From: Candidatus Latescibacterota bacterium
GTDB lineage: Bacteria; Latescibacterota; UBA2968; GCA-2709665
Reading direction: 5' to 3'
Length of the DNA: 64,000 nt
NCBI GenBank assembly: GCA_965219455.1
Contig: OZ244744.1
Coordinates: 1,888,001 to 1,952,000, forward strand
The translations under genes and the position numbers were made by a program. A model generated the notes under the pieces. The model was given only the letters and a program-made list of their open reading frames with translations, was not told the origin of the DNA and did not search any database. Shown one piece after another: positions 3,413 to 35,885 of this stretch; position 1 is the first letter of the stretch; each line of letters starts with the position of its first letter.

Positions 3413-3559
3413 ATCGCACTCCTTTACGCACGCCCGGAGGGCTCCAATTTGAAAAGGGATTGGTAAGCCACAGCCGGGCCGAATCTCCTTGCTCGGGATC
3501 GGCAAGCCGTTTCAACAGTTTCCCGGTTGACTACGCCCCGCGAGGTACCCCCAATACGG

Positions 3560-8280: not shown

Positions 8281-8513
8281 ATCCGACCAGTGGGTTTGCA
8301 CAGATCCAATGCTTGTCAACCGCGCCTTTAAGAGACGGATCCGACACAAGGCATACGCTTTGGCCCGGGACGAACTCCACGTGCGTTCACTCTCCAATAC
8401 GAAATTATGGGGGTCCTGCCGCAATCCCCCCTACCACACGGGCGCCCCCCGCCCGAATTGCCCTTGGCTTTTTCTACTCCTTGAACACCGCCGGCTCGCC
8501 GAACGGCGGACAT

Positions 8514-8816: not shown

Positions 8817-8920
8817 AAAATTCCCTCCCGATAGCGCTGCATTGATGCGACCCTGCCCGGCGGGAACCGACCGGGCCCGGTGTCGTTGCGCGATCGCGCC
8901 GGATCCATCACTAATCTCCC

Positions 8921-13973: not shown

Positions 13974-14845
13974 GTCTTCTCCTTGACCAGAATGAGGTGA
14001 CGAGGCAGATCCCCGCCCGGCACAATTTCCACAGGGGCCCGTGTCAGCGTCGACTCGTCTGCGCCCTGTGACGACATGCCCGCCCGAATTCTCGCCAAAT
14101 CTTCAGACGTTATCGTTCCGTTGTCTCGGATCCAGAGCCAATCCGGCCAGCCACCGTCAACCGGTTCGAAACGTACCCAGTCGTAACTTTCCAACTCGTC
14201 CAAAGGTGGGCCTGTGTGCGCTTGATCTATGATATCTCGAATTGACCCTCGAATCAGCGATATCAGGTGCGTGCGTCCCTCAGGGCAGTCAAATAGGCAA
14301 CGCCATGGCAATGCGGCGCACGATGCATGAATCGAATTGAAGTCTCTGTGTCCACGGTTCGAGATCGCTTCGCGAATGATCCAGCTTGGCACCAGCGTGC
14401 AACCCAGTTGACCTTTGTCGGCGCACTGACAGCAGTGCCAATAGGGAAATGTATCGTCAAGGTCCGCATGGTTATACAGAAGATACAGCGGGATGGCGCC
14501 TACACTTCCAGAGAACTCTTCAAGGATGTCTATCTGAAAGGGGCCCGACGATTTCACCCTGGCGTTTAGGTGTTCATACCTGTTTGATGGATACAGCTTT
14601 TTGGCTTGCACTGCAAACGCTAACGCTCGATTGCTGCCAGCGTAAATCAGGATCCACAGATCGGTACCTACTACCGATTCCTGTGCCTTAGTGCATTGAA
14701 ACAGCCTCGCATTATCCTTCATCGAACGTGTGAAATCCAGAGCGAGTAGATCGGTCAGCGTCTCCTCGCCAAGCCGGACTTTCAGGTCACGTGACAGTTT
14801 TAGCCTTTCCCAAGTGTCGGCGGCAATTTTTTCAGAAGGAGTCAT
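13970..14845 (-). CDS. PD-(D/E)XK-like nuclease (DUF6615-like)
   Basis: EETLTD, ES..G.D.W, AVQAKKL and PLYLLYN motifs; start reassigned to ATG 14845. Confidence 0.65.
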   Translation of the reverse strand: MTPSEKIAADTWERLKLSRDLKVRLGEETLTDLLALDFTRSMKDNARLFQCTKAQESVVGTDLWILIYAGSNRALAFAVQAKKLYPSNRYEHLNARVKSSGPFQIDILEEFSGSVGAIPLYLLYNHADLDDTFPYWHCCQCADKGQLGCTLVPSWIIREAISNRGHRDFNSIHASCAALPWRCLFDCPEGRTHLISLIRGSIRDIIDQAHTGPPLDELESYDWVRFEPVDGGWPDWLWIRDNGTITSEDLARIRAGMSSQGADESTLTRAPVEIVPGGDLPRHLILVKEKT

Positions 14846-14864
14846 TACGTAGTCCGTCCGATTA

Positions 14865-15467
14865 TTAAAACAGCCGCCGCAGCCATTTGATGAATTTTGT
14901 GCTGAGTGCTCCATCCACGTGCAAGTCACGTGCGCCGATAGCGGCGCCCATCAGCCTGGGGTTCTCCCTTGCTGCCAGCCAAGCGTGGATCCTGGCTCGC
15001 TGTATCTTTTTCTCAGTAAACTTACGATCCGCCTCTGGAATGCAGTCAATGTAACGCCGGGCTCGTGGCCAAATTGGATCATCGTCTGGAACCATTTCCG
15101 CAACGAAGTCTTCAAGTTCGCCTGATGATGAATTGTCGGGCATCAACCAGATGCCAACTCGAGGGGATCCATTAATGATGGTACCTTCTGCGCCGGGGTA
15201 GTCAGGCACCTCGATGTCTTCCTCTCGAAGCCGGTTGGCCACAGAGCTCCAGCGAGCATTTACGTCTTCGTTCGCGTCTGCGACAATGCCGAGAGCCCTG
15301 CGACCGGGAACCCGCAATTCCAGGCCGATTTCCCCGAGAAGGACATCAATTCCTTCCTTATCGGAAATGTAGAACTTCGGCATCTTTTCTAAGCGGTCAG
15401 CCAGATGCCGGACGACACGCTTGTCATCCAGCCCTTCCACGAGTAGAACACGATCATCACCCGACAT
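14865..15467 (-). CDS. DUF3226 TOPRIM-like protein
   Basis: VLLVEG.DD, GIVADAN and WLMPDN...GELEDF motifs; directly downstream of an ABC ATPase. Confidence 0.85.
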   Translation of the reverse strand: MSGDDRVLLVEGLDDKRVVRHLADRLEKMPKFYISDKEGIDVLLGEIGLELRVPGRRALGIVADANEDVNARWSSVANRLREEDIEVPDYPGAEGTIINGSPRVGIWLMPDNSSSGELEDFVAEMVPDDDPIWPRARRYIDCIPEADRKFTEKKIQRARIHAWLAARENPRLMGAAIGARDLHVDGALSTKFIKWLRRLF

Positions 15468-15471
15468 TTAG

Positions 15472-16650
15472 CTACCTCACCTCTACACCAACAGGTTGCT
15501 TCGCTAGTTCCCTGATATTACGCTCCGAATATTCGACGGCTCGGAGACCTCCATCTTCGCGTTCGAGACGCACGAGCGCCCCTTCGATACCGTCACAGTC
15601 ATCAATGGCTTGCGCAAAGCCACGAACGCAATCGTAGCTGTGCGTCGTGGCCAATACCTGCACGTTATTCTCGTGCGCCGTCATAAGAACCATCCGCCAG
15701 AACTCCCTTTGGACGGAATGATGAATACCGTTTTCGGCTTCATCGATGAGCAGAAAACCGTCGCGGCTGTTTGCCAGCGCCACGGCAGTGGCGGCCAGGT
15801 GCAGTGCCCCATCGCCCAGACTTTGCAAGGGGACTGGACGAGCCTGGCCCCGGAGCTTTGCGACCACTCGCTCAACATGTTCCTTGTCAAATGGTTCGTC
15901 GTTGCGAATCACGGCCACGCGCTCCAGGTCGCTCCCGAAAATCAGTCTCAGGGCCCGTATCGCTCGGTCCTCATCATCAGTCAGCGCAATGGCATTCCAG
16001 AAACGTACCATTTCTTCGTTGCTCAACACACCCGGTCCCAATGGTTGACATCCTATTGGGGACGACCACTTAGCTCCGACCAATAGGTCCCATGAGAAAA
16101 GGAACGCGCCAGCGCTATGGCGTTCTACGGTTCTGGCCGCCGCCGATCCCTGGATGGGGAGAAACCATGGCAGCAATTGTCCAGCGCCTTGAAATACGAC
16201 TTTGAATGCCTGACGATAGCCGTGTGCAAAATGGCCAGAGAGTGATTGCTTGAGTTGAGAAACCTGTTGGTCGTCCAGAGGCTCCTCCTCAATCCTGAGT
16301 TGATCCTCGCAGATATTGGGCCCGATCGAGATGCAGGCATTCCTCGACACATTCCGTCCATGGAACAGGGCCGCAAAGTCAGGTAGAAATCTTCTCTGCC
16401 GATTGGGATCATCGCAGATAGCGAGAGCCCGCTCTTGGCGGCTCTCCAGCAAGCCGGACAACACGCCATAGTTCCCGCGGGCTGCGTAGACCCGGACGGC
16501 ATCCAGAACGGTCGTCTTACCGACACCATTCTTTCCCGCCAGCAGCGTCACGCGACCCAACTTCCCTATCGTAAGTGACGCGATACCTCGAAATCCGGTT
16601 ATCGACAGATCCGGAAGATGAAGCCGGTTTTCATGGCGTTCTTCAGACAT
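15472..16650 (-). CDS. ABC-type ATPase (AAA_15/AAA_21)
   Basis: GFRGI, Walker A GKNGVGKT, signature SLGDG, Walker B LIDEAENGIH, ATTHS. Confidence 0.9.
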   Translation of the reverse strand: MSEERHENRLHLPDLSITGFRGIASLTIGKLGRVTLLAGKNGVGKTTVLDAVRVYAARGNYGVLSGLLESRQERALAICDDPNRQRRFLPDFAALFHGRNVSRNACISIGPNICEDQLRIEEEPLDDQQVSQLKQSLSGHFAHGYRQAFKVVFQGAGQLLPWFLPIQGSAAARTVERHSAGAFLFSWDLLVGAKWSSPIGCQPLGPGVLSNEEMVRFWNAIALTDDEDRAIRALRLIFGSDLERVAVIRNDEPFDKEHVERVVAKLRGQARPVPLQSLGDGALHLAATAVALANSRDGFLLIDEAENGIHHSVQREFWRMVLMTAHENNVQVLATTHSYDCVRGFAQAIDDCDGIEGALVRLEREDGGLRAVEYSERNIRELAKQPVGVEVR

Positions 16651-16779: not shown

Positions 16780-16806
16780 TGCGGGCGAGACGCCCGCGCT
16801 CCCAGG
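16780..16806 (-). repeat. Free-standing REP family 1 copy
   Basis: TGCGGGCGAGACGCCCGCGCTCCCAGG; one mismatch to the REP at 25374-25399. Confidence 0.8.
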
Positions 16807-18184: not shown

Positions 18185-19270
18185 CTAACGGTGATTTTCA
18201 ACAGATTCCGTGATTGGCGGCTCGAGCATGGACCGATTCAATTCGCCGACCGAGACCTGCAGCAGTTCAGCGGCCCTAGCCACGGGGATAGCTCCCTCAG
18301 CCATGGCGCGGTAACACAGCCGCTCGAAACGCTGCGGTACCTCTATGGGCATCGCATAAGGCTCTTCATACGGAGGCCGCCGCCAGCCCTGACGAGAGAA
18401 CTCCCCGAACAACACCTTGAAAAGAGACAAGCTGATAATGCCGAGATCCTTAAATCGATAGGTTAGAGCTTGAACACTTACCCCGAATAGTTGCTTTAGT
18501 GCAAAGAGTTCCCTCCATCCGATGGACGTTCGGCGCTTCCCAACGGCGGCCCACAGCGCTTCGGCGGGCATCAGGAACGCCCCGCCAAAACGGTAGGCGG
18601 CTTTCTCATCGTCTATATTTGCTGCGACGTCAAGGACTAGATGGCCGAGTTCATGCGCCATTGTCAAGCGTTGCCGCTCTCCCCATTCCTTATCGTTTAC
18701 GACAAGGACCGGAACCTGACGCTTTCCGGGGCGACGAACCCGCGCCATAAGGCCGTCGATATTTCCAAGATCAATTGCAAGGACCTTAATTCCATGTTCT
18801 TCGACCAACTCTACAAGATCAGGGATCGGGTCAAACCCCAAGCCCCAATACAACCTAAGATTGTTTGCGGCACGTTCCGCTTCAGAGGGATCGCTGACGA
18901 CAGGATACGGCGCGGCGCGGGGTTTGTCCCAGTTTACGCTCGTCAGATGGAGAAACTCCTCTACTTCAAGGTAGCGTTCCAGCAAGTGAATTACTTTCGC
19001 TTCGACCTGCGCCTCCTCGCGTCGACCCGTAATCTTCTTCTTCCGAAATTCGACGGACTCTAATGCGATTTCCTGGTCTCCGTTCAAGTAGTCCACGGGC
19101 ACTGATAGGGCGTTGGCCAGCGCTGTGAGGACGTCTGGGCTTGGCGTCGAGGCGCCACGCTCGTACTTGCCGATCGCCTGTGCCGTCACCCGACTTACAA
19201 TGCGTGCCTCAAGACCACGGAGAGAGAGGCCTGCAGCGGTCCGTGCAATCTTCAGTTTTCGCCCTACCAT
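18185..19270 (-). CDS. XRE HTH + ImmA/IrrE zinc metallopeptidase fusion
   Basis: N-terminal HTH (IGKYERG..P) and AHELGH HExxH motif; divergent from the CBASS operon. Confidence 0.9.
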   Translation of the reverse strand: MVGRKLKIARTAAGLSLRGLEARIVSRVTAQAIGKYERGASTPSPDVLTALANALSVPVDYLNGDQEIALESVEFRKKKITGRREEAQVEAKVIHLLERYLEVEEFLHLTSVNWDKPRAAPYPVVSDPSEAERAANNLRLYWGLGFDPIPDLVELVEEHGIKVLAIDLGNIDGLMARVRRPGKRQVPVLVVNDKEWGERQRLTMAHELGHLVLDVAANIDDEKAAYRFGGAFLMPAEALWAAVGKRRTSIGWRELFALKQLFGVSVQALTYRFKDLGIISLSLFKVLFGEFSRQGWRRPPYEEPYAMPIEVPQRFERLCYRAMAEGAIPVARAAELLQVSVGELNRSMLEPPITESVENHR

Positions 19271-19551: not shown

Positions 19552-20799
19552 ATGAACCCCAAGGCAAATTCAATCCATCTCACCGAGCCATTGGATATCC
19601 TATTGGCCGATGTGGCAATTCGCGTCCAACTCAGCCGGTCCGACTACGATAGGGCCGTTGGCAGATACAATACCATAAACGAATGGATTGAGCGCGAGGA
19701 CAGTGCGCTCAAGGATAAAGTTCATTTGTTCTATCCGCAAGGATCAATGGCCGTCGGCGCAACAATCGCATCGAAACTCCAGACCGATGAATTCGACATT
19801 GACATTGTGGCACAACTCAATTTGCCCTCGCAAATATCGCCCAATATCCCGTTAGATCTCCTGTTCGAAGCGATAAAAGGAAAATCGGGCTCCCGTTACT
19901 ACGAGATGACAAAGAGAAGAACTCGATGCGTTACCGTTGATTACAGCGACGACATGCACATCGATGTTACACCATTAATTCGCAGACCGGGAACCCCTGA
20001 GCGTGAGAGCTGGCTCTTCCACGATCGGCCGGAAGAACCGGCAGTGCCGAGCAGGAAGCTTATCGCCAATCCGTATGGCTTTGCAGAGTGGTTTAACACC
20101 TATACACCTGCAGACCAGGATTTCGCCGATGTGTTCGAAAGACGTGCGGCCGATTTTGAGCAGTCGATACTGGCGGAAAGGGCAGATAGCGAACCTGTCC
20201 AGCCACAAGAACCGCCATTCAGAAAGTCGAAGGCGGTGATCGTTCTTCAACTCTTAAAGCGTTGGCGCAACGTACAATACGATGCGCGCCCGGGGCGACG
20301 ACCGCCTTCGATACTGATTGCGAAGTTGGTAGCCGATGCGGCTAATCATACCAAAAGCCTGTCGGAGGAGCTGCTCTTTCAGGCGAAGCACATACTTTAT
20401 GAGTTCCAACGTTGGCAAGACGGTGGGCAAAGTATCCGCATCGTAAACCCCGTGTGCGATAAGGATGTCTTGACTGATCGGTGGCCGGAAACTTTGAAAG
20501 ACCAAAACGTCTTCATTCGCGATCTCGAACATCTGGTTAAACAGATTGAGGTATTGGTCAAGGGAGTTGACCTTGGCAAAATGAGGGAGGTTATGGTGGG
20601 ACTGTTCGGCGAAACGCCAACGATGGATGCATTCCGGGCATTCAGTGAGCGGGTGGGCGATCGGATTCGAACGGGTGAGAGCCGACACCTGCCTGGGACC
20701 GGCCGGTTAGTCGTTCCAGTAAGCCTTTCGGATGCGACACACCGATACTCCCGAAAAACCCAAAGGCATACCTTTTATGGCGAAGAGGAGCCCATTTAA
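19552..20799 (+). CDS. CBASS cGAS/DncV-like nucleotidyltransferase (CD-NTase)
   Basis: YPQGS, DEFDID and HIDVTP catalytic motifs; ANP.GF..WF; C-terminal HTFYG-EEEPI. Confidence 0.92.
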   Translation: MNPKANSIHLTEPLDILLADVAIRVQLSRSDYDRAVGRYNTINEWIEREDSALKDKVHLFYPQGSMAVGATIASKLQTDEFDIDIVAQLNLPSQISPNIPLDLLFEAIKGKSGSRYYEMTKRRTRCVTVDYSDDMHIDVTPLIRRPGTPERESWLFHDRPEEPAVPSRKLIANPYGFAEWFNTYTPADQDFADVFERRAADFEQSILAERADSEPVQPQEPPFRKSKAVIVLQLLKRWRNVQYDARPGRRPPSILIAKLVADAANHTKSLSEELLFQAKHILYEFQRWQDGGQSIRIVNPVCDKDVLTDRWPETLKDQNVFIRDLEHLVKQIEVLVKGVDLGKMREVMVGLFGETPTMDAFRAFSERVGDRIRTGESRHLPGTGRLVVPVSLSDATHRYSRKTQRHTFYGEEEPI

Positions 20800-21252
20800 A
20801 TGGCGCTGTCGATTTGGCAACAAGCCCAAGACATGCGGCGATCATGGCCGGATTTTCGGGTACTCAAACGAGGCCATTGGAAAATATGCTGGGAAGGACG
20901 CCTCACACCATTCGAACAAGCTTATATTGTTCAGGTCTGCCTCCGTCGTCAACGAAAAAGTAAGGATGGACCTCTCAAAACGCCGGGAATTCCGTGCGTG
21001 ACCGTAGTTGAGCCGCTATTGCGCCGGCGTGACGATAATCCCCGCGAAAACATCCCGCACAAATTTCACAATCAAGAATGCCCTGAGATGCCCTTCCTCT
21101 GCCTTTATTATCCAGATGGTCGTGAATGGACCCCTCGACAATCAGTCGCCCATACAATCGTTCCCTGGACGATAGATTGGCTGGCCTGTTACGAGGGCTG
21201 GCTTGCAACCGGCAAATGGATGGGTGGTGGTCGCCATCCCGAAGGTAATTAG
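20800..21252 (+). CDS. Prokaryotic E2-like protein (E2-only CBASS)
   Basis: IPH, LCLYYP (candidate catalytic Cys) and IVPW..WL..YE.W..TGKW.GGG.HP; abuts the CD-NTase stop. Confidence 0.8.
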   Translation: MALSIWQQAQDMRRSWPDFRVLKRGHWKICWEGRLTPFEQAYIVQVCLRRQRKSKDGPLKTPGIPCVTVVEPLLRRRDDNPRENIPHKFHNQECPEMPFLCLYYPDGREWTPRQSVAHTIVPWTIDWLACYEGWLATGKWMGGGRHPEGN

Positions 21253-21260: not shown

Positions 21261-22322
21261 ATGTCAAATATCAACGCGGAATCACCCGAAAAAAGATCAT
21301 CTGGCACGCTTGAGCACCGTCGGCTCCGACTTTCATGGCCGAAAGACAGGGAGTTTCGCATTCTTGCCATTGACGGGGGCGGTATTCGTGGAATCTTCCC
21401 CGCTACATTCCTGGCAGGACTTGAGGAACGCTATCTCGGCGGGGACTCAATCGCCGGATATTTCGACCTGGTCGCAGGAACCTCGACTGGTGGTATTATT
21501 GCCCTCGGGCTCGCCGCTGGACTTACAGCGGCCGACCTTCGAGACCTGTATGTTGAACGCGGATGTGAAATATTCCCTCCAATTCCAAACAACCCTGCTG
21601 GCTGGTTAGAACGCGCCCGTAGATACGTGGGCTGTCTCTTCAAATACCGCTACGACCGCGAAGCACTCATGCGAATTCTGAGCGACACTTTCGGAAGCCG
21701 AAAATTCGGTGAGGCGCAAACACGCCTTTGTATACCATCCTTCGACGGCCGATACGGTGAAGTCTACATATTCAAAACACCCCATCACCCCGATTTTAAA
21801 AATGACTCTGCTGAGTTAATGACGAAAGTTGCCGCAGCGACATCGGCCGCGCCTACATTCTTTCGACCATTAGAAGACCGCGGCTATGCGTTTGTTGACG
21901 GAGGGGTCTGGGCAAACAACCCGATTATGGTAGCGTTGGTTGACGCTTTATCGTGCTTTTCTGTGAGACGTGAGCAAATTCGCATTTTGAGTTTGGGCTG
22001 CGGGGATGACCAATATTTGGTCGGAAAATCGAAGATTAAAGGTGGGCTATGGGCTTGGCATGATATCATATATGCCGCCATGCGTCTCCAGTCTCTCAAC
22101 GCTCTTGGTCAGGCTGGACTTCTGATTGGCAGAGATAAGATTATCAGAGTTGATACGCCTATGCCTGCCAAGAAAATCCGTCTCGACGATTGGAGTGGTG
22201 CGGTGACCGTGCTGCCAGATGCTGCAAGAGCAGCCCTCGGCAAGTTTGGAGAGACAGTGGCATCGTCATTTCTGATGGAGCCCGCGGTCCCGTATCGACC
22301 AGTTGCACACGTGATCTCTTAA
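21261..22322 (+). CDS. capV: CBASS patatin-like phospholipase effector
   Basis: DGGGIRG, GTSTG and DGG patatin motifs; third gene of the CD-NTase operon. Confidence 0.88.
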   Translation: MSNINAESPEKRSSGTLEHRRLRLSWPKDREFRILAIDGGGIRGIFPATFLAGLEERYLGGDSIAGYFDLVAGTSTGGIIALGLAAGLTAADLRDLYVERGCEIFPPIPNNPAGWLERARRYVGCLFKYRYDREALMRILSDTFGSRKFGEAQTRLCIPSFDGRYGEVYIFKTPHHPDFKNDSAELMTKVAAATSAAPTFFRPLEDRGYAFVDGGVWANNPIMVALVDALSCFSVRREQIRILSLGCGDDQYLVGKSKIKGGLWAWHDIIYAAMRLQSLNALGQAGLLIGRDKIIRVDTPMPAKKIRLDDWSGAVTVLPDAARAALGKFGETVASSFLMEPAVPYRPVAHVIS

Positions 22323-22351: not shown

Positions 22352-25300
22352 TCAAGAAGCATTTCTTGATGCTTGATCTCCAAAAATCCTCAACTGTTGA
22401 CCTTGCGTGAGTTCCCTTGACAATCGCGCAATTTCCGGCCAGCTTTGTACGAGGCCATTGTAGGAGCGGGCTTCATCGGCGCGGTTCTTGCGCTCGCAGA
22501 CAGTGTAGAGCCGATATGCTAATTCACGGGCTGTCTCCGCGAGACCTCCGAGTTGCCGAACCAGCGTTGCGGCGGCGGATTCGCCGCCAGATTCAAGAGC
22601 GTGGACCAGGTAGTGGACCGCCTCCCACACGGTTAACCGTGCGTCGCTGGTTGGATCCCAATCGCCAGCCATCTCATTAGGACGTAGCAGCCGTACCTTG
22701 CCCCCACTGGAGGCGAGAATACCGGCTTCAACGATGCCGTCAATGCTGGTATTTTTCGCCTTGGAAAGGGTCTCCGCCACGCCGTACTCGCCCTCGCCAA
22801 AGCCCTGCTGCTCGAACCACGCCAGTGCCCACCGCGTGTCGGCGTCGAATTCGCCCTCCTGCTCGGCAAGGACCTCGTCGAGTGTCTGATTAATTAACGC
22901 CAAGGCGTCGCCTACGGATACGGGATTGCCCTGTGCGTCGAGTACTCTTGCGTATCGGGTGAACACAGCCATACCGGGTCCGATAGCGGCCTGCGCGAGA
23001 TCGACCGGCGCAATGTTGCCGGATTGGAGTGCGGCTAGAGCACCGGGAAGTTCATTTCTCAAAGCGGCGACGAACTCGCGTCGGGTGGCTAGCGACGCGC
23101 TCTCGGGACGCTTACGGCAGACCAAGACGATGCTGGACGCGAGCGCATTCGTGCCCATTCCGACCATCCGCCGACCCAACTCGGTACGCATCGGCCAGGT
23201 GCCGGTTACGGAGAAGCCTGACTTAATTACCGCGTCCAGGAAAGTCTCCCAGCCGGTGCTGGAAGTCCCGGCTTCACCTTTGGTCTCGGACTGCTTGAAA
23301 GCGTAGTAGATGGTGACTGGAAAGGCCGGACGCGACCGCTCGGCAATGCGGCGCATTGCTTCCGTCATCCCGGCGAGATAAAATTTCTCTGCCTCTTCCT
23401 TGTTCCCATGCCGGTATGGGGTAGCGACCAATTCTTCGGCTTTCGGTACAGCGAGCGTGGCGAACAGGTCGGGATAGATTGAGCGTACCGCGCGGCGCAA
23501 CCAGACGTAAAAGAAGTCGGAGAGATCGGCGTAACCAACATTGTCGTAATAGGGTGGGTCAGTGGAAAAAACTCTTGCAAGCGCAACGCCATGCGATTGG
23601 GCGTCGATTTGTGCCGCGCTACCGGGAACTGTTGGCGCGACTGAAGACAGACCGGAAGTGATCGACACAATGCCACCGTCAAAGTTGCCACTTGAATCTG
23701 AGAGTGGATTGCTTTCCCCGAAATCCCACACCATCGGGATGGCTTGTCTACCGAATGTATTGCGGGCATGCTCACGGAGTGTTGCCCAAGCGCACACCGT
23801 TGAGTTCCGATCTGAAACTTTATCCACGGCGAATGCCAAATACACACCCACCGCCTCCGCGTAAGCCGTTGCGCGGTCACCCCCGTCACGCAGGGGAATA
23901 TCATTATCCGGGGCTGCGGGTGTCATCACCCTTCTAGAATTTTCAGGGAGCGACGCGTCCCCGTAATCGCGTTTAACGCGCTCCATTGCCCTCGCGACGA
24001 GGTCGGAGAAGGTGGTCAGAGCTACGAGTTGGCGGGGGGTAAATAGATCGCGCCATTTTTTCATACCGTACTGCTGAACGCGAAAACCCAGTGCCCGTTC
24101 AGGAAGGTCAGTTTCAGGGGTGTTCTCCGGCGCAGCGCTCAAGGCTATTGCTTCGTGATCTTCAGTCGGTGCGATGTAAACCCGGCCGCGGTCGCCCTCC
24201 GCGACTATCGCCATCAGTTTTTCACCCATTCGACCTTGCTTGGCTTCGGTCCTCAGATAATCGAATGGCATTGGAGTCCCTGACATCAGACAAAGAAAAG
24301 AGCTACCGCTTCCTCCTGATTTGGTGCCCCGCTTTGTCGATTCCGCATCGTTTGGAATCCCCACATTAACCGTAAATCGATATCCCTGTCCTTCGATTGC
24401 CGGTTCGACATACGCCTCCTTCCCCATCTTCGTCGACAACATGAAGGTCGTAGCTAGCGGAACATCCACATCGGCGAATGCCGGGTTTGGACTCTTCACG
24501 GTGCGCGCCCACAGCCACGCGATCACTGTCAACTTCCGGCCCTCATACTGTTTGAGGTCAGGCCGTTCCCGGACCATCTCCGCAGTGACTTCGATCTTGG
24601 GATAGAGATGCCCGATGCGCTTCTCAGCCTCCTCGCGCATCCACCGGCCGTAATAGCGTACGTCCTCTGCGAGGCCCTGAGCGCCAGACCACAATCCTGG
24701 GAGCGCGGACGTCCCGTCCGCATGCCTCTTTCTTACTCCGTCAAGCTCCGTCCCGTCCGCATGATCCTCTGGAACTCCCGCAAGTTCCGCTCCTTCCACA
24801 TTCCTTGCCGCGCTGCTCCAGGGCCATTCGTTTGCCTTCTCGGCAAGTCCCGCTTTCACGGGATTCTGCTCAATGTAGTCTACCACAGTTGATAGATGAT
24901 TTTCATCGCGGATATAACGGTCGAAGTAGTCCTCTTCCCAGACCTGGCCGCTCCGGCCAAGTATTTTGTTAACTTGCTTGGCTGTAAACGATTTCCACGA
25001 ATGAACGACGGCCTCAAGTGGAAAGCCGGGAGTCGTTTCGATCAGCGCATGCACGTGATTGGGCATGATGACCCACGACAGCAAGCGGTAGCGTACGCCG
25101 TCAAAGTGAAGTAGGGCGTCTTCGACTTGAACCGCTATCCGCTCATCTCTTAGCCAGCAGGCTCCATGTCCCTGTCCAGCGTATCGTTCAATTCTCTCAC
25201 GCAACTCCGCGCATCTGGGATCGCTCGTGGCCTCCCTGCCTTTGAGCGCCAATTCGCTCTTCCATGCGGCAATGACATCTGCCGGGACTGAATCAGCAAG

Positions 25301-26014
25301 GCGAAACGTGATGGACTGAATGATGTCAGGTTGATCCAGATGGGGAAGATATCCGCGGCTGTGCCAGGCCTTGTGCGGGCGGGACGCCCGCGCTCCCAGC
25401 AAGGGCTTTTTCGAATGGGATGTACCTGTGCCGAGATACTTGGCCCGGGCTTCCGGGTTGACGGGTGGCCTGCCGGCGAATCTGGGCGGTATTTCGATCA
25501 TGGCCTTATTGATGAGCACAGCCACAGGGTTGAGGTCGCTGGCATGGGCTTCGAGCCCCAGCCGCTGGGCTTCCAGCGGCAGTGCGCCGCCCCCGGCGAA
25601 GGGGTCGTGAAAAGCCGGAAGCTTGTCCGGGTTGAACAGCTCGGTGGCGCGCGGATGTTCCGTATTTTCGGCGCAGGTACGACGCCAGGACTTGCGGATT
25701 TCCGCTCGCGCCTTTTCAAGCACCTGCTCGTTTGTTGTGTTCTTCCAAATCACCAAATCCTTGATGATGTCGAATAGGCGCTCACGTTCCTCTTTCTGAT
25801 CTGCTTGAGTGGGAAACTCCTCAGGCCACGCTGACGGATCGTCCACCATCTGAGCGAATATAACAGCCCGCGCTGCCGCCAGCGGGCGCCGCGCCCACCA
25901 GAGGTGGAGGGTACTGGGGTGCCCATGGCGGATCGACTTTTCACGAGCCGACGCGGCATTAATCGCGTCAAGGGGAAGGGCGACTTCGATGAGTTTTTTT
26001 CGGTGGGTATTCAT
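22352..26014 (-). CDS. DUF1156 adenine-specific DNA methyltransferase with in-frame RAYT insertion
   Basis: [18 protein letters not shown] and TDPPYY motifs; 1220 aa including a Y1 transposase domain at about aa 206-440. Confidence 0.92.
24697..25399 (-). mobile_element. REP-flanked RAYT (Y1 HUH transposase) module inside the methyltransferase
   Basis: RGYLPH, ITFRL.DS, MPNHVH, W..DYFDR.IR and [10 protein letters not shown] motifs; bounded by inverted 26-nt palindromic repeats (24697-24722 and 25374-25399, 24/26 identical). Confidence 0.88.
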
Positions 26015-26496
26015 TTAGCGCTCGAACTCCGCAGAAGAGAAATATTCAAAGGGGTTCCGCATCGGATGAGTTTGATTTCGTATTCTTTCCTCCGAAACGA
26101 GATTCGAGACTTTCTGAGCTTATCCCTTTGCGTAATATGCAAACGGCCTCCATAGGCCCCAACCGGAAGGAAATGCGTCTTGTGTTCGTCCGGAATCCGA
26201 GCTTCGGCGACGCCGGATCCAGCCTGTAGCTGGGTTGCCATTTCTGTTGCATCCGGGCTGCCACGTTTTAATTCCAGCGGTACAACCCAGTTGCCCCCAC
26301 CATTGCAGTCGCAACTGATGAACAGAAAATCGCAATGTGTCTTATCCTTCAGGTCGAAATAAGGGTGATCCAAATCCATAACCAGATGCGGCGACGGGGC
26401 GTTTTTCAACGGAACCTTGCAACCCTCTTTCGAGCATCTCTTAACGATGGTCCCTTCAGGAAGTCCATTTTTCAGCTGTTCGACTAAGCCACACAT
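26011..26496 (-). CDS. PD-(D/E)XK-like nuclease partner of an ABC ATPase
   Basis: HCDFLF..VPLELK motif; overlaps both neighbours. Confidence 0.6.
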
Positions 26497-28037
26497 TACT
26501 CGGTACTACCTGCAATACGGTTACCGATCGTCGCCCAATCATTGTAGAGTTGTCGGCCAACTTCGCTGAAATCACTCTCAAGCCCACCTGCATCAGGATC
26601 GAATCGAATTTCTTCGACGACCGATCCCTTCGGGCGGCGCTTCTGCTTGAACAACCATGCCCCCACCTGCTCGGGACGAAGGGCAAATTCGCCGTGGGGC
26701 ATCTCCTTTCGACGGGACTCGGGAAGTTCGGAGCGTCGCACGATGTTGGCGAGTTCCTCCAAAACCCACTCGCTGTGCGTCGTGACGATTACATTGACGC
26801 CCGCCTTAACAAGCGCGGCGATCTGACGGGTAAATTCGACCTGCATGGCAGGGTGCAGGTGTGACTCGGGTTCTTCGATAATGAGCGTGCAGCCGGGGCT
26901 GACCAGATGGCGAAGAAACATCACTACCGGTGCGATTTCCGATACCATGGAAGAGGCATTCATCAACGGCATCGGATGTTTCCATCCCGATGGCTGGTAG
27001 GTGAAGTGCGGGTAGCTGATCAACTCCGATCTTTCGACCTGAATCGATCCGCCGAGAATCAGATCTTCAATTCGCGCACCCAGATGTTTCCTGGACGTGC
27101 TTTGACGAATTGCCGCGCTGGGCAATACGAGCAAGTTTTGCAGAAAATCACCCAAAACACCCGACAGCATTGGAGTTTCTTCATTGGGACGCAGACCGGC
27201 AGTTGTAGCGTTCTGGATCAACGCACTCACCACCACCTGATGGCTATTCATCACGCCGGTTCGATCGGCGGGGAGATAGAATGCCGCGCGATAAAGGGAA
27301 CCTACAAGGTGCGGAAGAGCGAGTCCAAGCAAATGATTGATTGGCCCCAAGGCTTGTCGATACGAATCCTGGCCCATTTGATCAGCTCTCAAGAACGTAT
27401 TCTTCAGGCGGTCGTAGTACTCAACGAACTCTTTCCTATCGTCGAGTTTAACCCTCAGTTGTTCCACATTAGGCATCGCCGTCACGAATTCTGGTGCATT
27501 GGACTTCAGAATCAGTTCGTGTTCAAACGATGCCGAATCCCTTGAAGTAGATTTCCGTAATACAATCCGCGCACATCGCCTGTTCCCTTTCCGGATAAGT
27601 GCGCTGGCACTGTCGATCCCAAAGCACCTTTCGATTTCACTGTGGAGTTGATCGTTCTGTAACTCAAACATTGAGCAAATTGCCTTGACAATAGGGATGG
27701 GAAGAACAGCTTCTTTTTCGCTCCGGATATCTCCTATCCCGTTCGTCACTTGCTTCAGAAATTCGTTAAGCGCGTTGAGAGTTTCCCTGTCTACAAAGCT
27801 TGGACCGAGATTAAGAAGCCTCTCATAGTTCAAGAAGAACCGCGAAGTGGTCGATCTACCCGTAAAATACACATGCAGCGCATAGATCAACGTTGCCAGA
27901 TAAGATTTCCCAGTATTGCTCGGTCCAATGAATACCGTCAACGGGCGCAGATCGATTTTGGCATTGACGATCGGTCCGAAATCAGCGACTTCGAGTTCAA
28001 GCGAGTCTCGTATGGTTGAATCTTCCATAACTTCCAT
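26496..28037 (-). CDS. ABC-type ATPase (AAA_15-like)
   Basis: FGPI, Walker A GPSNTGKS, ASSMV signature, IIEEPESHLHP, TTHS. Confidence 0.9.
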   Translation of the reverse strand: MEVMEDSTIRDSLELEVADFGPIVNAKIDLRPLTVFIGPSNTGKSYLATLIYALHVYFTGRSTTSRFFLNYERLLNLGPSFVDRETLNALNEFLKQVTNGIGDIRSEKEAVLPIPIVKAICSMFELQNDQLHSEIERCFGIDSASALIRKGNRRCARIVLRKSTSRDSASFEHELILKSNAPEFVTAMPNVEQLRVKLDDRKEFVEYYDRLKNTFLRADQMGQDSYRQALGPINHLLGLALPHLVGSLYRAAFYLPADRTGVMNSHQVVVSALIQNATTAGLRPNEETPMLSGVLGDFLQNLLVLPSAAIRQSTSRKHLGARIEDLILGGSIQVERSELISYPHFTYQPSGWKHPMPLMNASSMVSEIAPVVMFLRHLVSPGCTLIIEEPESHLHPAMQVEFTRQIAALVKAGVNVIVTTHSEWVLEELANIVRRSELPESRRKEMPHGEFALRPEQVGAWLFKQKRRPKGSVVEEIRFDPDAGGLESDFSEVGRQLYNDWATIGNRIAGSTE

Positions 28038-28792: not shown

Positions 28793-29347
28793 TCATTGGC
28801 ACGCTGCCAGAAGTCTCGAATTTGCGGTTAACACTTCTATGCCTCCCGTCCTGAAGTCGCCGTCGTTCGTAATCAGTTTCCAGCCATTGTGACGACAGGT
28901 TTCAGCCAGCAATCCGTCATTGAAATCAGTCACTCCCGCTGTAAAATCTGCCAGCACCTGCTTGATATTGGCCGTGGCAAACGGATGATCGTGGCGCACA
29001 CAGAGCTTGAGCATGGACGTTGCAAAGGATGCCGCACCTTTGCCGACCCCGCTGAAGGCCGCCGATTTGCGAAATGTCTTGAAATCGGGATACCGGGTCA
29101 GGTGTAGAACCTTCCATTCAATGCGACAATAGGTATTCAAGTACTCACTTAAGACCAAAGCGTCCATGATCAACCGCGAACCTACGGATCGAATGGACTT
29201 TAATCCGTTACTATATTTCTGGGTGAACGTGCTCCTGTACCCCGATGGCGGTGGATACAAATAGAGCCAAACGTTCGCATCAAGCAAGAACGTCTCGCCT
29301 CTGCTAAACGGATATGCAGCCAAGTCATACGCCTTATTCTTCTTCAT
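28793..29347 (-). CDS. PIN-domain ribonuclease
   Basis: LLDANVW, VLSEY, DFND and ITNDGDF acidic PIN tetrad. Confidence 0.88.
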   Translation of the reverse strand: MKKNKAYDLAAYPFSRGETFLLDANVWLYLYPPPSGYRSTFTQKYSNGLKSIRSVGSRLIMDALVLSEYLNTYCRIEWKVLHLTRYPDFKTFRKSAAFSGVGKGAASFATSMLKLCVRHDHPFATANIKQVLADFTAGVTDFNDGLLAETCRHNGWKLITNDGDFRTGGIEVLTANSRLLAACQ

Positions 29348-30973: not shown

Positions 30974-33900
30974 TCAGGTCGGCTTCCCAGCCCGTTCGAT
31001 CAAGTCATTCAGCTTGTAATTCACGCTTGTCACTGAGAAATCCGGTTCCCTTTGAAAAGGCCTACGCAGGTAGTGCACGCGATGCTCACCGCCATCCAGG
31101 AACTCGACGATGGCGAGGATGAAATCGTCCGGTTTGTTCAGCGCCGTAAGGATCTCATTCTTCGTCACCGTAATCGTATCTCCACCGGACTGGCGGCCCT
31201 TCACTTCGATGAAACGCAACTTTCCCGTACCGGGAACACGGCTCTCAATGTCATAACCGAGATGTTCGGTCTCCCGGTCGACGGGCTCGAATCCGAGGCC
31301 GCGTTCCACTTCCATGATGATGGCGCGAGCCTTTGCCGCCGACTTCTGGGTGTCCACGATGTGCCGTGGCGTGGAGGCTCCGGTCATGGCTGCCAGGAGT
31401 CCCATGGGTACGACGACAAGGCCGCCGACGATGGCGGGCGGCAGCGCTGAGATCCGCTCCTCCCGGTCGAGTTGGTTCGTGCGCTGATGGAGCCGCTCCT
31501 GCAGATCGTCTGCGCGCCGTTGGGCCTCGCGGGAGTTGAGCTTTGCCCCGGCCTTTCCTGCTTCCTCCTGGAGCTTGAGTTCCTCGGCGCGGTGGTCCCA
31601 ATACGCCATTTCCTTGGTCAGGCGCTCCTTAACCGCGGCACGGGTTTTCGCAACCAGAGCGAGGCGCCGGTCGCGAACCTCTCCAAGGTGTTCCGGCACG
31701 ATGTTGGCGATGGCCTCCTCCCGCGCCTGCTGCTCCAGCTTTCGGGTGATCCATCCGCACTCCGGGCGGTCAAGGATGTCGACCACTTTGGGTTCGTAAT
31801 CCGCCAGCGGCCGGTAGTCAAGGTACGGCGCGTAGTCGAGACGGCGTTTCACGCCGGCTGCATCGATCTCGACATAGAGCGTCCGGCGTGAGATGACACG
31901 ACCCTCGCCACTGGCCAAAACACTTCCGTCCTTTATCGCATGCTCCAGCGAGAAGATCACACGCGTTTCCAGGCCCGGGTCCCGCTCGTCCACGAGCACG
32001 GCGCCGCGCTGCAGGAGGTCGCGGTGGCGTTCCAATGTGAGATCGAGAACGGCATCGAGCAAGGCGTGTCCCGGGCACACGAAGGCAGCGGGCGTTTGCC
32101 CGTGCGGCGCCAGGTGTGTCTTGTCGAACGCAATGCGTTCGTAGCGCGCAAGCACCGGTTCTCCGACGCCGATCTGCCGGTCGCGGTTGCGCACAGGCGC
32201 CGGGACGTGTGTAATTTCGTATCTGCCCGTTTCGCGCCGCCGCACCGAACCCCCCAGGCGACGGATCGCTTCGAGGAAGAACGACTCGATATAATGCGGT
32301 TGCAATCGCCGGGCTTCGGCGCGCTCCATTTCCTCCCGTACTCGTGCGACACGAGTGGAATCCATCGCATCTTGCGCGAGGGCCTGTTCCTCAATCAGGG
32401 ACTGCAGGTGCGGCTGGTCCACGGCTTCGCTTACCGCCTCGGAGAGTCGCGCGCGCACTTCGGGCTGCTCGCCGTAACGGATCGCCTCGATTAGCAGATC
32501 GCGGAGCGGCCGGCCATCGAACTGAAGCCTGCCGAGCACGTCGAAAACCTGGCCGCCGAGCGAGCTTCGGGCCTGCTCGAGCTTGTCCAGCAGGGTGCGG
32601 TACACGTCGCCCTCCCGGGTCTCTTCCGCCACCAGGTTCCACAGATGACATACCTCGGTCTGGCCGATGCGGTGGATGCGCCCGAAGCGCTGTTCGATGC
32701 GGTTCGGGTTCCACGGCAGGTCGTAGTTCACCATCAGATGGGCGCGCTGAAGGTTGATGCCCTCCCCGGCCGCGTCAGTAGCGAGCAGCACCTGCACCAG
32801 CGGATCGTGGAGGAACGACTCCTGGGCCTTGCGGCGATCCTCCCGCCCCATGCTCCCGTGAATCGTGACGATGCCAGAGGGCCGGCCGAGCAGCGTTGCG
32901 ATACGCCGTTGGAGGTAGTTGAGGGTGTCCCTGTGCTCGGTGAAAAGGACCAGCTTCTGGCTGGGTGACGGGACGGGCGGCGGGATGGCGCCGCTGCCGT
33001 AGGGTTCGCCCTTTTCGCCACCCCTGGCGCCCAGGCCGGCTGGCGTAAAGATTTCTGCCAGCAGGTTCGAGAGTTCGCGCCACTTCGTGTCTTTGCCGCT
33101 CTTTAGAATCTCCGCGGCAAGGCCCTCAAGCCATTTGAGTGAAGCAATCTCCGCATTGAGTTCCGCGATCGTACTGGCCGCTGTTGCCTCATCCAGCACC
33201 GCGGCCTCTGCGGCTTCGACCTCCTCGTAAGGGGCGTCGTCCAAGTCTTCCACGTCCTCGGCATCGAATAATGGACCGGTCTGCTGGATCGTTTCCGGTT
33301 GCCTGGCGCCGCGTTGCAGCAGGCTCAGTTCGCGAAGGCGGCTTTCCAGGCGCTCGCGCCGCCGCCTCAGCGACTGGTGGATCGCCTCGGGTGATGACGC
33401 GAGGCGCCGTTGCAGGATGGTGAGCGCAAAACCGACGGTGCCCGCGCGGGTGTCGCTTTGCAGCGCCTCGGCGCGATTGAACTCTTCGCGGACGTATTCG
33501 GTCACTTCCCTGTACAGCCGAGCTTCGGCGTCGGTGAGCCTGTATGGCACCGAATACGCGATGCGCTCCGGGAACAGCGGCCGGCCGTCGAACTTTAACA
33601 GGTTTTCCTTCACCATGCGGCGCATCAGATCCGAAACATCCACCTGATGAACGCCATCCCTGAAACGTCCCTCGAAGCGGTCGCCATCCAGCAGGGCGAG
33701 GAAGAGTTGAAAGTCCGCCTCCTTGCCGTTGTGCGGCGTCGCCGTCATCAACAGAAAGTGACGGGTGAGGTTCGACAGGAGTTGCCCCAGGCGGTAGCGT
33801 TTGGTGTACCGCACCTCGCCGCCAAAGAAGGTCGCCGACATTTTGTGCGCTTCGTCGCAGACCACCATATCGTAGCGGCAGTCCGGAGCGCTCAGTTTGG

Positions 33901-34546
33901 CCTGGAGGTCCTCGTTGCGGGCGAGTTTGTCCAGCCGGGCGATGGCGAGATCGTTTTCGAGGAACCAATTGCCCGTACGGGCGGCGTCGAGTTTGTCGTT
34001 CGTCAGAATATCGAAAGGGAGGTTGAAACGCCGGTAGAGTTCATCCTGCCATTGCTCGGCGAGGCTGCCGGGACATACCACAAGACACCGCCTGAGATCG
34101 CCGCGTGCGACGAGTTCCTTCATCAACAGTCCGGCCATGATTGTTTTTCCCGCGCCGGGATCGTCCGCCAGCAGGAAGCGAAGAGGCTGGCGAGGCAGCA
34201 TGGCCTCGTACACCGCAGTGATCTGGTGCGGTAGTGGTTCAACAAGCGATGTGTGTACGGCAAGGACGGGATCGAATAGATGGGCCAGACGGATGCGGTA
34301 GGCCTCAGACACGAGACGGAACAGCGCGCCGTCGCCATCGAAACTCCAGGGGCGGCCCTGCTCGACGATTTCGATGCGCGCCTCGTCGTGCCGGTAGAGA
34401 ATCTCCTCGGCGACCCGTCCGGAGGCCGGGCGGTAGATCAGGGTAAGTGCCCCGGAACCGTGCCATTGCACGTTCACAACGGTCACGACACCGTCAGGAA
34501 CGATGCCACGGACCGTCGCGTCGGGTTGGAGATCCTCGAGTTTCAT
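30974..34546 (-). CDS. SNF2-family helicase with C-terminal DUF3883 nuclease
   Basis: LADDPGAGKT, DEAH, TATP, QRFGRIHRIGQ; C-terminal GYDIES..FIEVKGR. Confidence 0.92.
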   Translation of the reverse strand: MKLEDLQPDATVRGIVPDGVVTVVNVQWHGSGALTLIYRPASGRVAEEILYRHDEARIEIVEQGRPWSFDGDGALFRLVSEAYRIRLAHLFDPVLAVHTSLVEPLPHQITAVYEAMLPRQPLRFLLADDPGAGKTIMAGLLMKELVARGDLRRCLVVCPGSLAEQWQDELYRRFNLPFDILTNDKLDAARTGNWFLENDLAIARLDKLARNEDLQAKLSAPDCRYDMVVCDEAHKMSATFFGGEVRYTKRYRLGQLLSNLTRHFLLMTATPHNGKEADFQLFLALLDGDRFEGRFRDGVHQVDVSDLMRRMVKENLLKFDGRPLFPERIAYSVPYRLTDAEARLYREVTEYVREEFNRAEALQSDTRAGTVGFALTILQRRLASSPEAIHQSLRRRRERLESRLRELSLLQRGARQPETIQQTGPLFDAEDVEDLDDAPYEEVEAAEAAVLDEATAASTIAELNAEIASLKWLEGLAAEILKSGKDTKWRELSNLLAEIFTPAGLGARGGEKGEPYGSGAIPPPVPSPSQKLVLFTEHRDTLNYLQRRIATLLGRPSGIVTIHGSMGREDRRKAQESFLHDPLVQVLLATDAAGEGINLQRAHLMVNYDLPWNPNRIEQRFGRIHRIGQTEVCHLWNLVAEETREGDVYRTLLDKLEQARSSLGGQVFDVLGRLQFDGRPLRDLLIEAIRYGEQPEVRARLSEAVSEAVDQPHLQSLIEEQALAQDAMDSTRVARVREEMERAEARRLQPHYIESFFLEAIRRLGGSVRRRETGRYEITHVPAPVRNRDRQIGVGEPVLARYERIAFDKTHLAPHGQTPAAFVCPGHALLDAVLDLTLERHRDLLQRGAVLVDERDPGLETRVIFSLEHAIKDGSVLASGEGRVISRRTLYVEIDAAGVKRRLDYAPYLDYRPLADYEPKVVDILDRPECGWITRKLEQQAREEAIANIVPEHLGEVRDRRLALVAKTRAAVKERLTKEMAYWDHRAEELKLQEEAGKAGAKLNSREAQRRADDLQERLHQRTNQLDREERISALPPAIVGGLVVVPMGLLAAMTGASTPRHIVDTQKSAAKARAIIMEVERGLGFEPVDRETEHLGYDIESRVPGTGKLRFIEVKGRQSGGDTITVTKNEILTALNKPDDFILAIVEFLDGGEHRVHYLRRPFQREPDFSVTSVNYKLNDLIERAGKPT

Positions 34547-34654
34547 TGGATATTTGTTTCGTGATTAGGACGGAGAATGGTACAACCCGTCAGTTTCGCT
34601 GGATTGCACAGGCTGCTGCGCGACGCCATAACGCCAAGGCCTTGCGCCATATGT

Positions 34655-34847
34655 GTCGAGGGCAGGATGCCCTCGGTCCCAGGAACGGCGCTTTCGCGTT
34701 CGAGACTCTGGCTGGCATCGCGAACTAAACCTTAAAGGCATACTGCCCCCGTTCAGTACCTGATCCACCAGTATCCGGACCGAGGGCATCCTGCCCTCGA
34801 ATAGCAGGTGACCAATCAATACCCGCATCGTGGGCATCTTCCCCTCG
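34655..34847. repeat. REP family 2 cluster downstream of the RAYT
   Basis: GAGGGCAGGATGCCCTCGGTCCCAGG at about 34658, then oppositely oriented palindromes at 34734, 34782 and 34830 (48-bp period). Confidence 0.85.
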
Positions 34848-34863
34848 ACCAGAATTTGATCCA

Positions 34864-35598: not shown

Positions 35599-35838
35599 AA
35601 ATCCTCAATTACCGCAACTGACGCGTTACATTACATGCGAAACCAGATCGGAGATGGCGGCGCAACACCGGAAAAGGGAGGCTTGGGACCGAAGGCATCC
35701 TGCCCCGCTCAGTACCTGATCCACCAGTATCCGGACCGAGGGCCTACTGCTTCCATTGCATCAGAAACCATATCAGAAATGACGGCGCGAATACCTCGCC
35801 CATTAGCCGTCGAGGGCAGGATGCCCTCGGTCCCAGGG
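35459..35838. repeat. REP family 2 cluster overlapping and upstream of the RAYT
   Basis: Palindromes at 35467, 35515 and 35563 (48-bp period), 35691, a partial at 35738, and an inverted copy at 35812. Confidence 0.85.
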
Positions 35839-35885
35839 GAAACCTTCGTCCCAGAGAACCCCCGGCCCCGTCGACCCCATCGCCG

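Follow-up and report, generated by a model that had tools for sequence, protein, structure and literature searches.

The window analyzed here (64,000 nt; positions 1,888,001 to 1,952,000 of contig OZ244744.1, assembly GCA_965219455.1, from a Candidatus Latescibacterota bacterium) contains a phage-defense locus of the Hma type in which the methyltransferase gene hmaB carries, in its own reading frame, a complete gene for a REP-associated tyrosine transposase (RAYT) together with the repetitive extragenic palindromes (REPs) at its two ends. On its sequence, the insert is a REPtron, i.e., a RAYT (Y1/HUH transposase) gene plus REP hairpin ends, and the host is the HmaB/DUF1156 adenine methyltransferase of the Hma phage-defense system. 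The explanation that we favor, and consider probable, is that the REPtron has survived in hmaB as a passenger that is translated within permissive linkers, is active or was so until recently, and is exchanged between hmaB alleles. The features of the fusion and its surroundings are compiled in Table 1.

An in-frame RAYT within the methyltransferase gene hmaB

The fusion open reading frame (ORF) was assigned to HmaB by PADLOC (PDLC00660, E=0, 1521.8 bits), with a match that is split in two at the insert; its second stretch aligns residues 440–1207 to positions 210–962 of the 967 positions of the HmaB profile. Pfam searches of the fusion protein detected DUF1156 (residues 12–83, E 1.8e-33), Y1_Tnp (residues 309–384) and a weak match to D12 methyltransferases, and its score against the NCBIfam equivalog DUF1156_antiphage (114 bits) is far below the cut-off of 1000. 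The insert is bracketed by the S-adenosylmethionine (SAM)-binding motif FAGGG (residues 139–143) and the DPPY motif (residues 819–822), both of which are invariant across 23 fused relatives that carry their RAYT at the same site (site A, see below).

Read in the frame of the host, the insert has no stop codon, compared to 5–12 in every one of the remaining five frames. It exceeds the cut-offs of the NCBIfam model NF047646 REP_Tyr_transpos (92.1 bits, cut-off 80) and of Pfam Y1_Tnp (36.6 bits, cut-off 23), and fails the IS200/IS605 TnpA model transpos_IS200 (29.1 bits, cut-off 55). The sole relative of the insert that was found by sequence in the PDB is 4ER8, the TnpA_REP of E. coli (E 2e-8). 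In this alignment, the HVH motif corresponds to residues 320–322 of the fusion protein and Tyr380 lies opposite chain position 115 of 4ER8, which we take to be the catalytic tyrosine. H320, V321, H322, Y363 and Y380 are invariant in the 23 fused site-A relatives, and the RAYT domain presumably cleaves REPs. In a predicted (AlphaFold) model of a 1193-residue relative, P0011, the RAYT segment (residues ∼229–405) has a predicted local distance difference test score (pLDDT) of 72–85, and the linkers on either side score below 50. A Foldseek search of the PDB with this model returned 4ER8 as top match (E 4.2e-4, target template modeling score 0.62), followed by the ISDra2 and IS200 transposases; the full-length model is weak (mean pLDDT 58, predicted template modeling score 0.30) and uninformative on the methyltransferase fold.

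Rather than forming an extragenic, separately expressed gene, this RAYT lies inside the hmaB ORF. When the insert was scanned from the 5′ REP to the HUH motif, neither an in-frame ATG nor a Shine-Dalgarno-like sequence was found upstream of the motif, so that the RAYT appears to be producible only as part of the fusion.

REP hairpins at the ends of the insert

The two REP arms of the insert are 26 nt long, inverted and 92% complementary, and each combines the foot GGGAGC with a stem of 7 bp and a loop of 3 nt. They differ at two positions (A/G and T/C), which are paired with each other in the stem (GCGGACG/CGTCCGC versus GCGGGCG/CGCCCGC). A degenerate pattern of this REP matched three times in the window, at the two arms and at 16780–16805, compared to no match in 100 shuffles. 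The same three copies, all of them within 9 kb in the Hma island, make up the whole family in the 5.84-Mb genome, instead of a cognate population of REPs or REPINs (REP doublet-forming hairpins) dispersed through the genome. On the 3′ side, two tandem 39-nt units contain one REP half each, and the lengths of relatives differ in this region by exactly 13 residues. The degenerate 13-codon unit upstream of the 5′ REP is present once more in the relative P0006; a repeat search of the window did not detect this unit.

In all loci for which DNA is available (the window, L001, L002, L064, L055 and L067), the REP ends are retained with different, yet self-pairing, stems, namely of the types GCGGACG, GCGGGCG and GCGCGCG, and of a CCGGCA type in L067. 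The loop of the 5′ REP of the fused allele in L002 (∼8616–8680) contains a 27-nt palindromic insertion, the length of which is a multiple of three and which gives the impression of one repeat placed inside another.

Much of this had been described in an earlier note made from the DNA letters alone. Its complete RAYT lying in frame in a defense methyltransferase, without stop or frameshift, agrees with the single 1220-residue ORF and the HmaB match at E=0, its placement of the insert between the SAM-binding motif and DPPY agrees with the positions of the two motifs, and its Y1 HUH transposase of about 235 residues with intact HVH and catalytic tyrosine was recovered as such by NF047646 and by the alignment to 4ER8. 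Likewise, the inverted palindromes with two compensatory differences, the solo REP at 16780 (the only copy besides the two arms in the genome) and the frame-keeping 39-bp units (a tandem pair with 74% identity on the 3′ side) were all found again.

Recurrence of the fusion among HmaB relatives

With the whole fusion protein as query, 8000 significant relatives were obtained, and the best 120 of these were examined; as the query includes the RAYT, fused proteins are favored among these. An in-frame RAYT is present in 93 of the 120, at site A, which is the site used in the window (after reference residue ∼188), in 43 proteins, at site B (after residues ∼440–470) in 47, and at both in three. The remaining 27 are insert-free proteins of 958–1015 residues with C-terminal parts 70–79% identical to that of the window. 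Moreover, we searched for long proteins with a second RAYT of the window, which is free-standing and located next to hmaA. This search yielded 377 matches at E≤1e-10, the best 120 of which are almost all DUF1156 proteins; 85 of them were additional to the first set and comprise 71 HmaB proteins with an insert at site B, seven with an insert in a third region (reference residues 276–398), five divergent DUF1156 proteins and two proteins other than HmaB. In total, among the matches listed, ∼176 protein clusters (at 90% identity) of HmaB/DUF1156 relatives have an in-frame RAYT. The records of the fused proteins are labeled as Acidobacteriota, Chloroflexota, Pseudomonadota, Myxococcota, Planctomycetota, Tectomicrobia and others, and include ones named Chloracidobacterium thermophilum and Caldilinea aerophila.

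What the earlier note had treated as a single curiosity is thus one case of a large recurrent class, with ∼176 clusters, a second hot spot and a second RAYT beside hmaA. The search among DUF1156 homologs that it had proposed yielded empty alleles, and two loci contain other inserts. The latter, in L007 and L132, are Gly/Arg/Asp-rich low-complexity inserts of 160 and 96 residues at site A. RAYT similarity was absent from all of their reading frames; hence, insertions of another kind are tolerated at site A as well.

At site B, the linker of the window is empty and about 12 residues longer than the consensus. A candidate REP remnant in this linker (23882–23971) was rejected, as its score was reached by 169 of 2000 shuffles. 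The relative P0039 has the sequence DYLAARVP...SGTASVPDND at site B, which resembles decayed REP peptides.

Patchy distribution and decoupled histories of insert and host

A host tree (246 leaves, 949 core columns, inserts removed) and a RAYT tree (184 columns; 234 cores, of which 48 lie at site A, 50 at site B and 30 in other long proteins, the other 106 being free-standing RAYTs) were built with FastTree and rooted at the midpoint. Fitch parsimony on the host tree requires at least 29 changes of insert state at site A and at least 19 at site B, compared to means of 44 and 46 and a minimum of 38 for both sites with shuffled labels. Since these changes are many, yet below the shuffled minimum, the insert state is partly inherited but very patchy. 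Well-supported sisters differ in insert state, e.g., L088 (empty) and P0050 (site A), with a support of 1.0. On the RAYT tree, the embedded RAYTs fall into many groups that are interleaved with free-standing RAYTs. As judged from this tree, they are polyphyletic and would not descend from one ancient fusion. An eight-member site-B clade (support 0.91) adjoins the window's 17 site-A RAYTs in leaf order; the node joining the two was not recovered.

At the DNA level, the RAYT core of the window is 95.8% identical to that of one of two hmaB paralogs in locus L001 (L001b), with a synonymous divergence (dS) of 0.12, whereas the host parts are 77–80% identical (dS 0.9–1.1). The tract of high identity extends from the 5′ REP to a point within the C-terminal region of the RAYT. 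L001 is a Latescibacterota contig on which the two paralogs (2236–5845 and 7976–11618) are ∼2 kb apart, each with a RAYT at site A. Between these paralogs, the RAYTs are 99.3% identical, compared to 88.9% and 72% for the N- and C-terminal parts of the host, and the tract includes ∼130 nt and ∼90 nt of flanking host sequence, which is the pattern that gene conversion would produce. Among protein pairs, RAYTs with 97–100% identity reside in hosts that are 72–75% identical, and the reverse pattern also occurs, with hosts of 76–82% identity carrying RAYTs of 46–58% identity.

Between fused alleles, the ratio of nonsynonymous to synonymous substitution rates (dN/dS) of the RAYT core is 0.19–0.21 (L001) and 0.086 (L002, dS 1.08), and that of the host parts is 0.08–0.18. 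The REP-bearing tail has a dN/dS of about 1, while the REP is nearly invariant as DNA. By this measure, insert and host are both under purifying selection, and the constraint seen in the host parts suggests that the fused protein has retained N6-methyladenine (m6A) methylation. The dN/dS of the insert, which had been proposed as a check, thus speaks for purifying selection over its whole range (0.086–0.21), and given these low ratios and the invariance of HVH, Y363, Y380, FAGGG and DPPY, neutral decay of the insert in relatives was not seen.

These ratios also bear on the idea that the fusion is a recent neutral accident, in frame by chance, in a non-functional hmaB whose ORF has not yet decayed. 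Fused alleles at a dS of about 1 have a dN/dS of 0.08–0.18 (host) and 0.09 (RAYT), the fused proteins have kept the methyltransferase motifs without any change, hmaA and hmaC of the window are intact, and the in-frame state is found in ∼176 independent protein clusters. We therefore regard a dead gene as very improbable, even though the three REP copies in the genome may point to a recent arrival and the sole RNA contig (see below) belongs to a relative rather than to the allele of the window.

RAYT insertions beyond HmaB

An exhaustive search with the insert as query gave 20,850 relatives, including 907 with E≤1e-30. A Pfam scan of 30 of the 150 representatives listed, i.e., all those of at least 339 residues except P0192, P0212 and P0251, detected a second Pfam family in 14 of the 30. 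Host domains lie on both sides of the RAYT in four of the proteins (two MmeI-type methyltransferases, a PriA helicase and a WYL-WCX protein); in others, the RAYT is joined to a host domain on one side. In all of these non-HmaB fusions the RAYT is flanked by REP-derived peptide repeats. As to REPs inside the ORFs of free-standing RAYTs, strict REP-peptide patterns matched just 20 of 117 short representatives.

The range of hosts is relevant for the question of whether the RAYT has been co-opted, i.e., recruited as a working part of the methyltransferase that nicks single-stranded DNA (ssDNA) or hairpins, or anchors the protein to DNA, during sensing or restriction. Repeated capture at two linkers would then reflect selection for function. 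Several observations would fit with such a role: the catalytic residues do not vary, and dN/dS has stayed low across a dS of about 1; the tie to one host family is very strong; the other hosts include methyltransferases of the restriction-modification kind (MmeI/Eco57I); and RAYTs also occur close by, with one of the site-B type beside hmaA in the window and a free one directly after hmaB in L067. However, the insert is missing from 133 of 249 sequences, despite a sample biased towards fusions, and from 79 of 80 metagenome loci, and close sister alleles differ in its presence. It is as DNA that the REP hairpins are conserved, while their peptides have a dN/dS of about 1 and a pLDDT below 50. 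Moreover, RAYTs of the same clade are embedded in unrelated housekeeping proteins too, and near-identical RAYTs reside in hosts of just 72–75% identity. Taken together, we consider co-option unlikely. Of the two interpretations offered in the earlier note, the frame-preserving mobile domain that shelters in its host gene gained support from patchiness, decoupled histories, retained REPs and purifying selection; the domesticated nuclease, its alternative, is less likely but retains some probability through the marked bias towards HmaB.

Signs of activity and read coverage

REP-like peptides were found in just two of 151 HmaB proteins that lack a RAYT. In RAYT-bearing HmaB proteins, they are present at sites A and B and, in addition, in 36 occurrences at other positions. 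For example, P0050, which has its RAYT at site A, contains two extra in-frame REP doublets that are missing from the 88%-identical empty allele L088. The insert junctions vary between lineages, and no target sequence emerged.

Five sequencing runs contain half or more of the sampled words of the window; four runs were examined, at the level of contigs only. An exact contig (24489–25072, no differences) bridges the 3′ junction. For k-mers of the 5′ REP (25349–25419), summed contig depths range from 12,981 to 194,138 in metagenomes and a metatranscriptome (runs X1, X4, X7 and X18). Because these depths are extreme, the REP family of the insert appears to be very common in those communities, though rare in the genome. 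Many loose contig ends at the 5′ REP run into other RAYT-like sequences.

An assembly or gene-calling artefact at a repeat could be suspected from these depths and from the breaking of short-read contigs at the 5′ REP. We regard it as hardly credible, given that the genome is a single 5.84-Mb contig, that the exact contig spans the 3′ junction, and that the identical architecture is found in many independent assemblies, including the records of C. thermophilum and C. aerophila.

The contigs also inform on a reversible switch, in which the REP-bounded RAYT would be precisely excised from ssDNA, with inserted and empty alleles that differ in activity, leading to phase variation of defense. Precise excision from ssDNA is described for Y1 transposases of the IS200/IS605 type (PMC5027513), the inverted REP ends and the catalytic residues of the RAYT are intact, and close alleles frequently differ in presence or absence of the insert. 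On the other hand, none of the contigs in the four runs joins across the insert, though contigs drop rare variants, empty relatives have a different linker instead of a clean junction, and autonomous mobility of RAYT genes is undemonstrated according to 10.1101/279083. A switch therefore seems improbable to us, clearly more so than co-option.

Genomic context of the fusion

The Hma locus of the window is complete, with hmaA, hmaB and hmaC on the same strand, and is split by nested defense genes, among them a CBASS-like module and ABC-type ATPases (Table 1). The second RAYT, upstream of hmaA, is 47.6% identical to the RAYT in hmaB, and its identity to the embedded site-B RAYTs of two HmaB relatives, P0001 and P0003, is 77–78%. 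These two are double-insert proteins at the top of the whole-protein search, and are 76–85% identical to HmaB of the window in the parts compared. Several copies of the GAGGGCAGGATGCCCTC REP are located on each side of the second RAYT (34600–35900), and it is translated as RGQDALD in the N-terminus of this RAYT. A genome-wide search for the GAGGGCAGGATGCCCTC REP with three mismatches allowed gave 31 matches, some of which are probably due to chance.

Table 1. Features of the hmaB–RAYT fusion and of the surrounding Hma island (positions in the window).
Feature	Position	Strand	Details
hmaB::RAYT fusion ORF	22352-26014	-	1220 residues, zero internal stops; ORF, Pfam, PADLOC
HmaB N-terminal part, residues 1-205	25400-26014	-	DUF1156 and SAM motif FAGGG, residues 139-143, about 25586-25600
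HmaB C-terminal part, residues 441-1220	22352-24694	-	DPPY, residues 819-822, at 23549-23560
RAYT insert, residues 206-440	24695-25399	-	705 nt, 235 residues
RAYT core, residues 217-405	24800-25366	-	HVH 25049-25057; Tyr380 24875-24877; Tyr363 24926-24928
5′ REP	25374-25399	-	foot CTGGGAGC, then hairpin GCGGGCG-TCC-CGCCCGC; peptide LGARASRPH
3′ REP, in inverted orientation to the 5′ REP	24697-24722	+	hairpin GCGGACG-GGA-CGTCCGC; peptide HADGTSALP
Two tandem 39-nt units	24710-24787	+	24710-24748 and 24749-24787; one REP half each; 74% identity
Degenerate 13-codon unit	25400-25438	-	directly upstream of 5′ REP; weakly supported; copy number differs among alleles
Solo REP, family of the hmaB insert ends	16780-16805	-	inside Hma island
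hmaA helicase	30974-34546	-	SNF2/ResIII/Helicase_C and NOV_C; intact ORF
hmaC	8921-12247	-	HEPN_Swt1 and DUF499 ATPase; intact ORF
Hma locus	8921-34546		split by nested defense genes
Second RAYT, free-standing	34864-35598	-	244 residues; upstream of hmaA; flanked by REP GAGGGCAGGATGCCCTC, unlike hmaB REP
Schlafen/AlbA_2 protein	12741-13973		
DUF6615 protein	13970-14929		
AAA_21 ATPase	15472-16650		
HTH-IrrE regulator	18185-19270		
SMODS nucleotidyltransferase	19552-20799		CBASS (cyclic oligonucleotide-based antiphage signaling system)-like module
150-residue ORF	20800-21252		CBASS-like module
Patatin effector	21261-22322		CBASS-like module
161-residue partner of the following ATPase	26011-26496		
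AAA_15/AAA_21 ATPase	26496-28037		best PADLOC match PD-T4-4_A
PIN protein	28793-29347		

Nested genes are a common feature of this type of system: embedded genes are reported for 62.7% of Hma systems, with 3.1% of the embedded genes being mobility-associated (10.1101/2024.01.29.577857). In PMC12839542, Hma is renamed as a DUF499-centered type-1 system related to bacteriophage exclusion (BREX), and embedded genes of Hma/DUF499-centered BREX-related systems are also the subject of PMC8565338. HmaB of the window, with hmaA, hmaC and nested defense genes, resembles these systems. Unlike the embedded genes described there, which lie between hma genes, the RAYT lies inside hmaB (10.1101/2024.01.29.577857; PMC12839542). 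Supplements aside, no mention of a transposase inside the methyltransferase was found in the passages of 10.1101/2024.01.29.577857 and PMC12839542.

Discussion

In our model of the REPtron as a translated passenger, one HmaB protein would be made, read through from the first to the last REP, with the RAYT domain tethered via REP-encoded linkers. Having neither a start codon nor a ribosome-binding site of its own, the insert would be expressed only within the host protein. In a restriction-like system, loss of the modification enzyme is presumably harmful, so that only frame-preserving, fold-compatible insertions would survive and deletion of the gene would be unable to purge the insert. The RAYT would have been kept active, at least until recently, and would add further REP doublets, likewise in frame, to the gene in which it resides. 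At the same sites, hmaB alleles would exchange RAYT cassettes, complete or in part, and we infer that at least some of this transfer occurs by recombination via the conserved flanks or the REPs. In the genome studied here, the RAYT may have arrived with the Hma island and not have spread since.

Several observations weigh against this model. In a less biased set, an in-frame RAYT is present at just one of 80 metagenome loci. (In a further one of the 80, L067, a free RAYT directly follows the stop codon of hmaB; among genome loci, three of 63 have an in-frame RAYT, one of them in two paralogs.) There is a heavy bias towards HmaB, in that nearly all long proteins with a domain like the second RAYT are HmaB proteins; random insertion combined with a filter for permissive loops would on its own leave this bias unexplained, and it could equally mean functional integration. 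The model of P0011 is too poor to place sites A and B as exposed surface loops, and deep nodes of the RAYT tree are unreliable. Hairpin folding z-scores against shuffles are modest (−0.5 to −2.4), and since the folding energies beat shuffles just modestly, the case for hairpins rests on conservation and covariation in the stem. As to the reads, the 5′ junction is unbridged by any of the contigs listed, which break at the 5′ REP, no contig joint that skips the insert was seen in the four runs, in which contigs drop rare variants, and the sole RNA contig corresponds to the RAYT of a relative, with 36 differences.

The free RAYT in L067 (5901–6780) begins a few bases past the hmaB stop codon, and its ORF includes the REPs on either side, with the stop codon directly behind the final REP.

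A more specific scenario, which we put forward tentatively and hold to be possible rather than probable, is that RAYT/REP lineages have specialized on the Hma methyltransferase gene. They would use two or three linker sites and read-through expression, spread between alleles and along with the island, and shed free copies such as the RAYT beside hmaA, in an intein-like lifestyle that dispenses with protein splicing. Tethered to the defense enzyme, the HUH domain may add nicking of hairpins or ssDNA.

The hmaB insert shares with known RAYTs and REPtrons the Y1 HUH fold, the HUH and Tyr motifs, the inverted REP hairpins with a conserved foot and an NCBIfam score above the cut-off. In contrast to them, it is intragenic, lacks its own start and stop codons, has a REP family of just three copies and occurs in near-identical copies in divergent hosts. 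RAYTs are usually described as single-copy genes that no longer copy themselves (10.1101/119735; 10.1101/279083). According to 10.1101/279083, proteins longer than expected were excluded by Quentin et al., who took them for gene fusions or annotation errors, and REPs inserted in frame inside RAYT genes are known. In-frame repeats within ORFs, such as Rickettsia palindromic elements (RPEs) and intragenic GTAG/CGTC REPs, have been described as short palindromes that are translated in loops of functional proteins, many of them involved in DNA metabolism (Di Nocera et al. 2013, PMC3733652). Solo REPs and doublets of this kind are present in fused HmaB relatives; in hmaB, by contrast, the whole unit of transposase and both ends is in frame and recurs at defined sites of one family. 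A description of a whole RAYT translated in frame in a host gene was not found in our search of the literature, from the portions of the papers it covered, with supplements outside its scope.

Similar to inteins and homing genes, the insert is an in-frame selfish element in a gene that is costly to lose, occupies the same sites sporadically and has a history decoupled from that of its host. Unlike these, it has a HUH/Y1 nuclease with hairpin ends and would stay in the mature protein; no Hint/splicing, LAGLIDADG or HNH domain was detected in the fusion protein by Pfam. IStrons combine an IS200/IS605-type element with a group I intron, and their insertion is silent through RNA splicing. They likewise are Y1 elements that are silent in genes, whereas silence of the hmaB insert would come from translation through the element. 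An end-to-end open transposon translated as a domain of its host would therefore be a route into coding sequence that differs from those of inteins (protein splicing) and IStrons (RNA splicing).

For the annotation of defense systems, it matters that about 1–5% of the sampled Hma methyltransferases, by a rough and biased estimate, have a recurrent RAYT domain. For protein engineering, the two hot spots may be of use as positions at which a large methyltransferase tolerates insertions, and as fusions are found in records named for cultured organisms (C. thermophilum and C. aerophila), they should be experimentally accessible. Finally, RAYTs are widely regarded as single-copy, vertically inherited and possibly domesticated genes, the mobility of which has never been shown. 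The hmaB cassettes bear on this view: since near-identical cassettes reside in diverged hosts at the same codon-level site, the comparative evidence suggests that RAYT genes themselves move or are exchanged.

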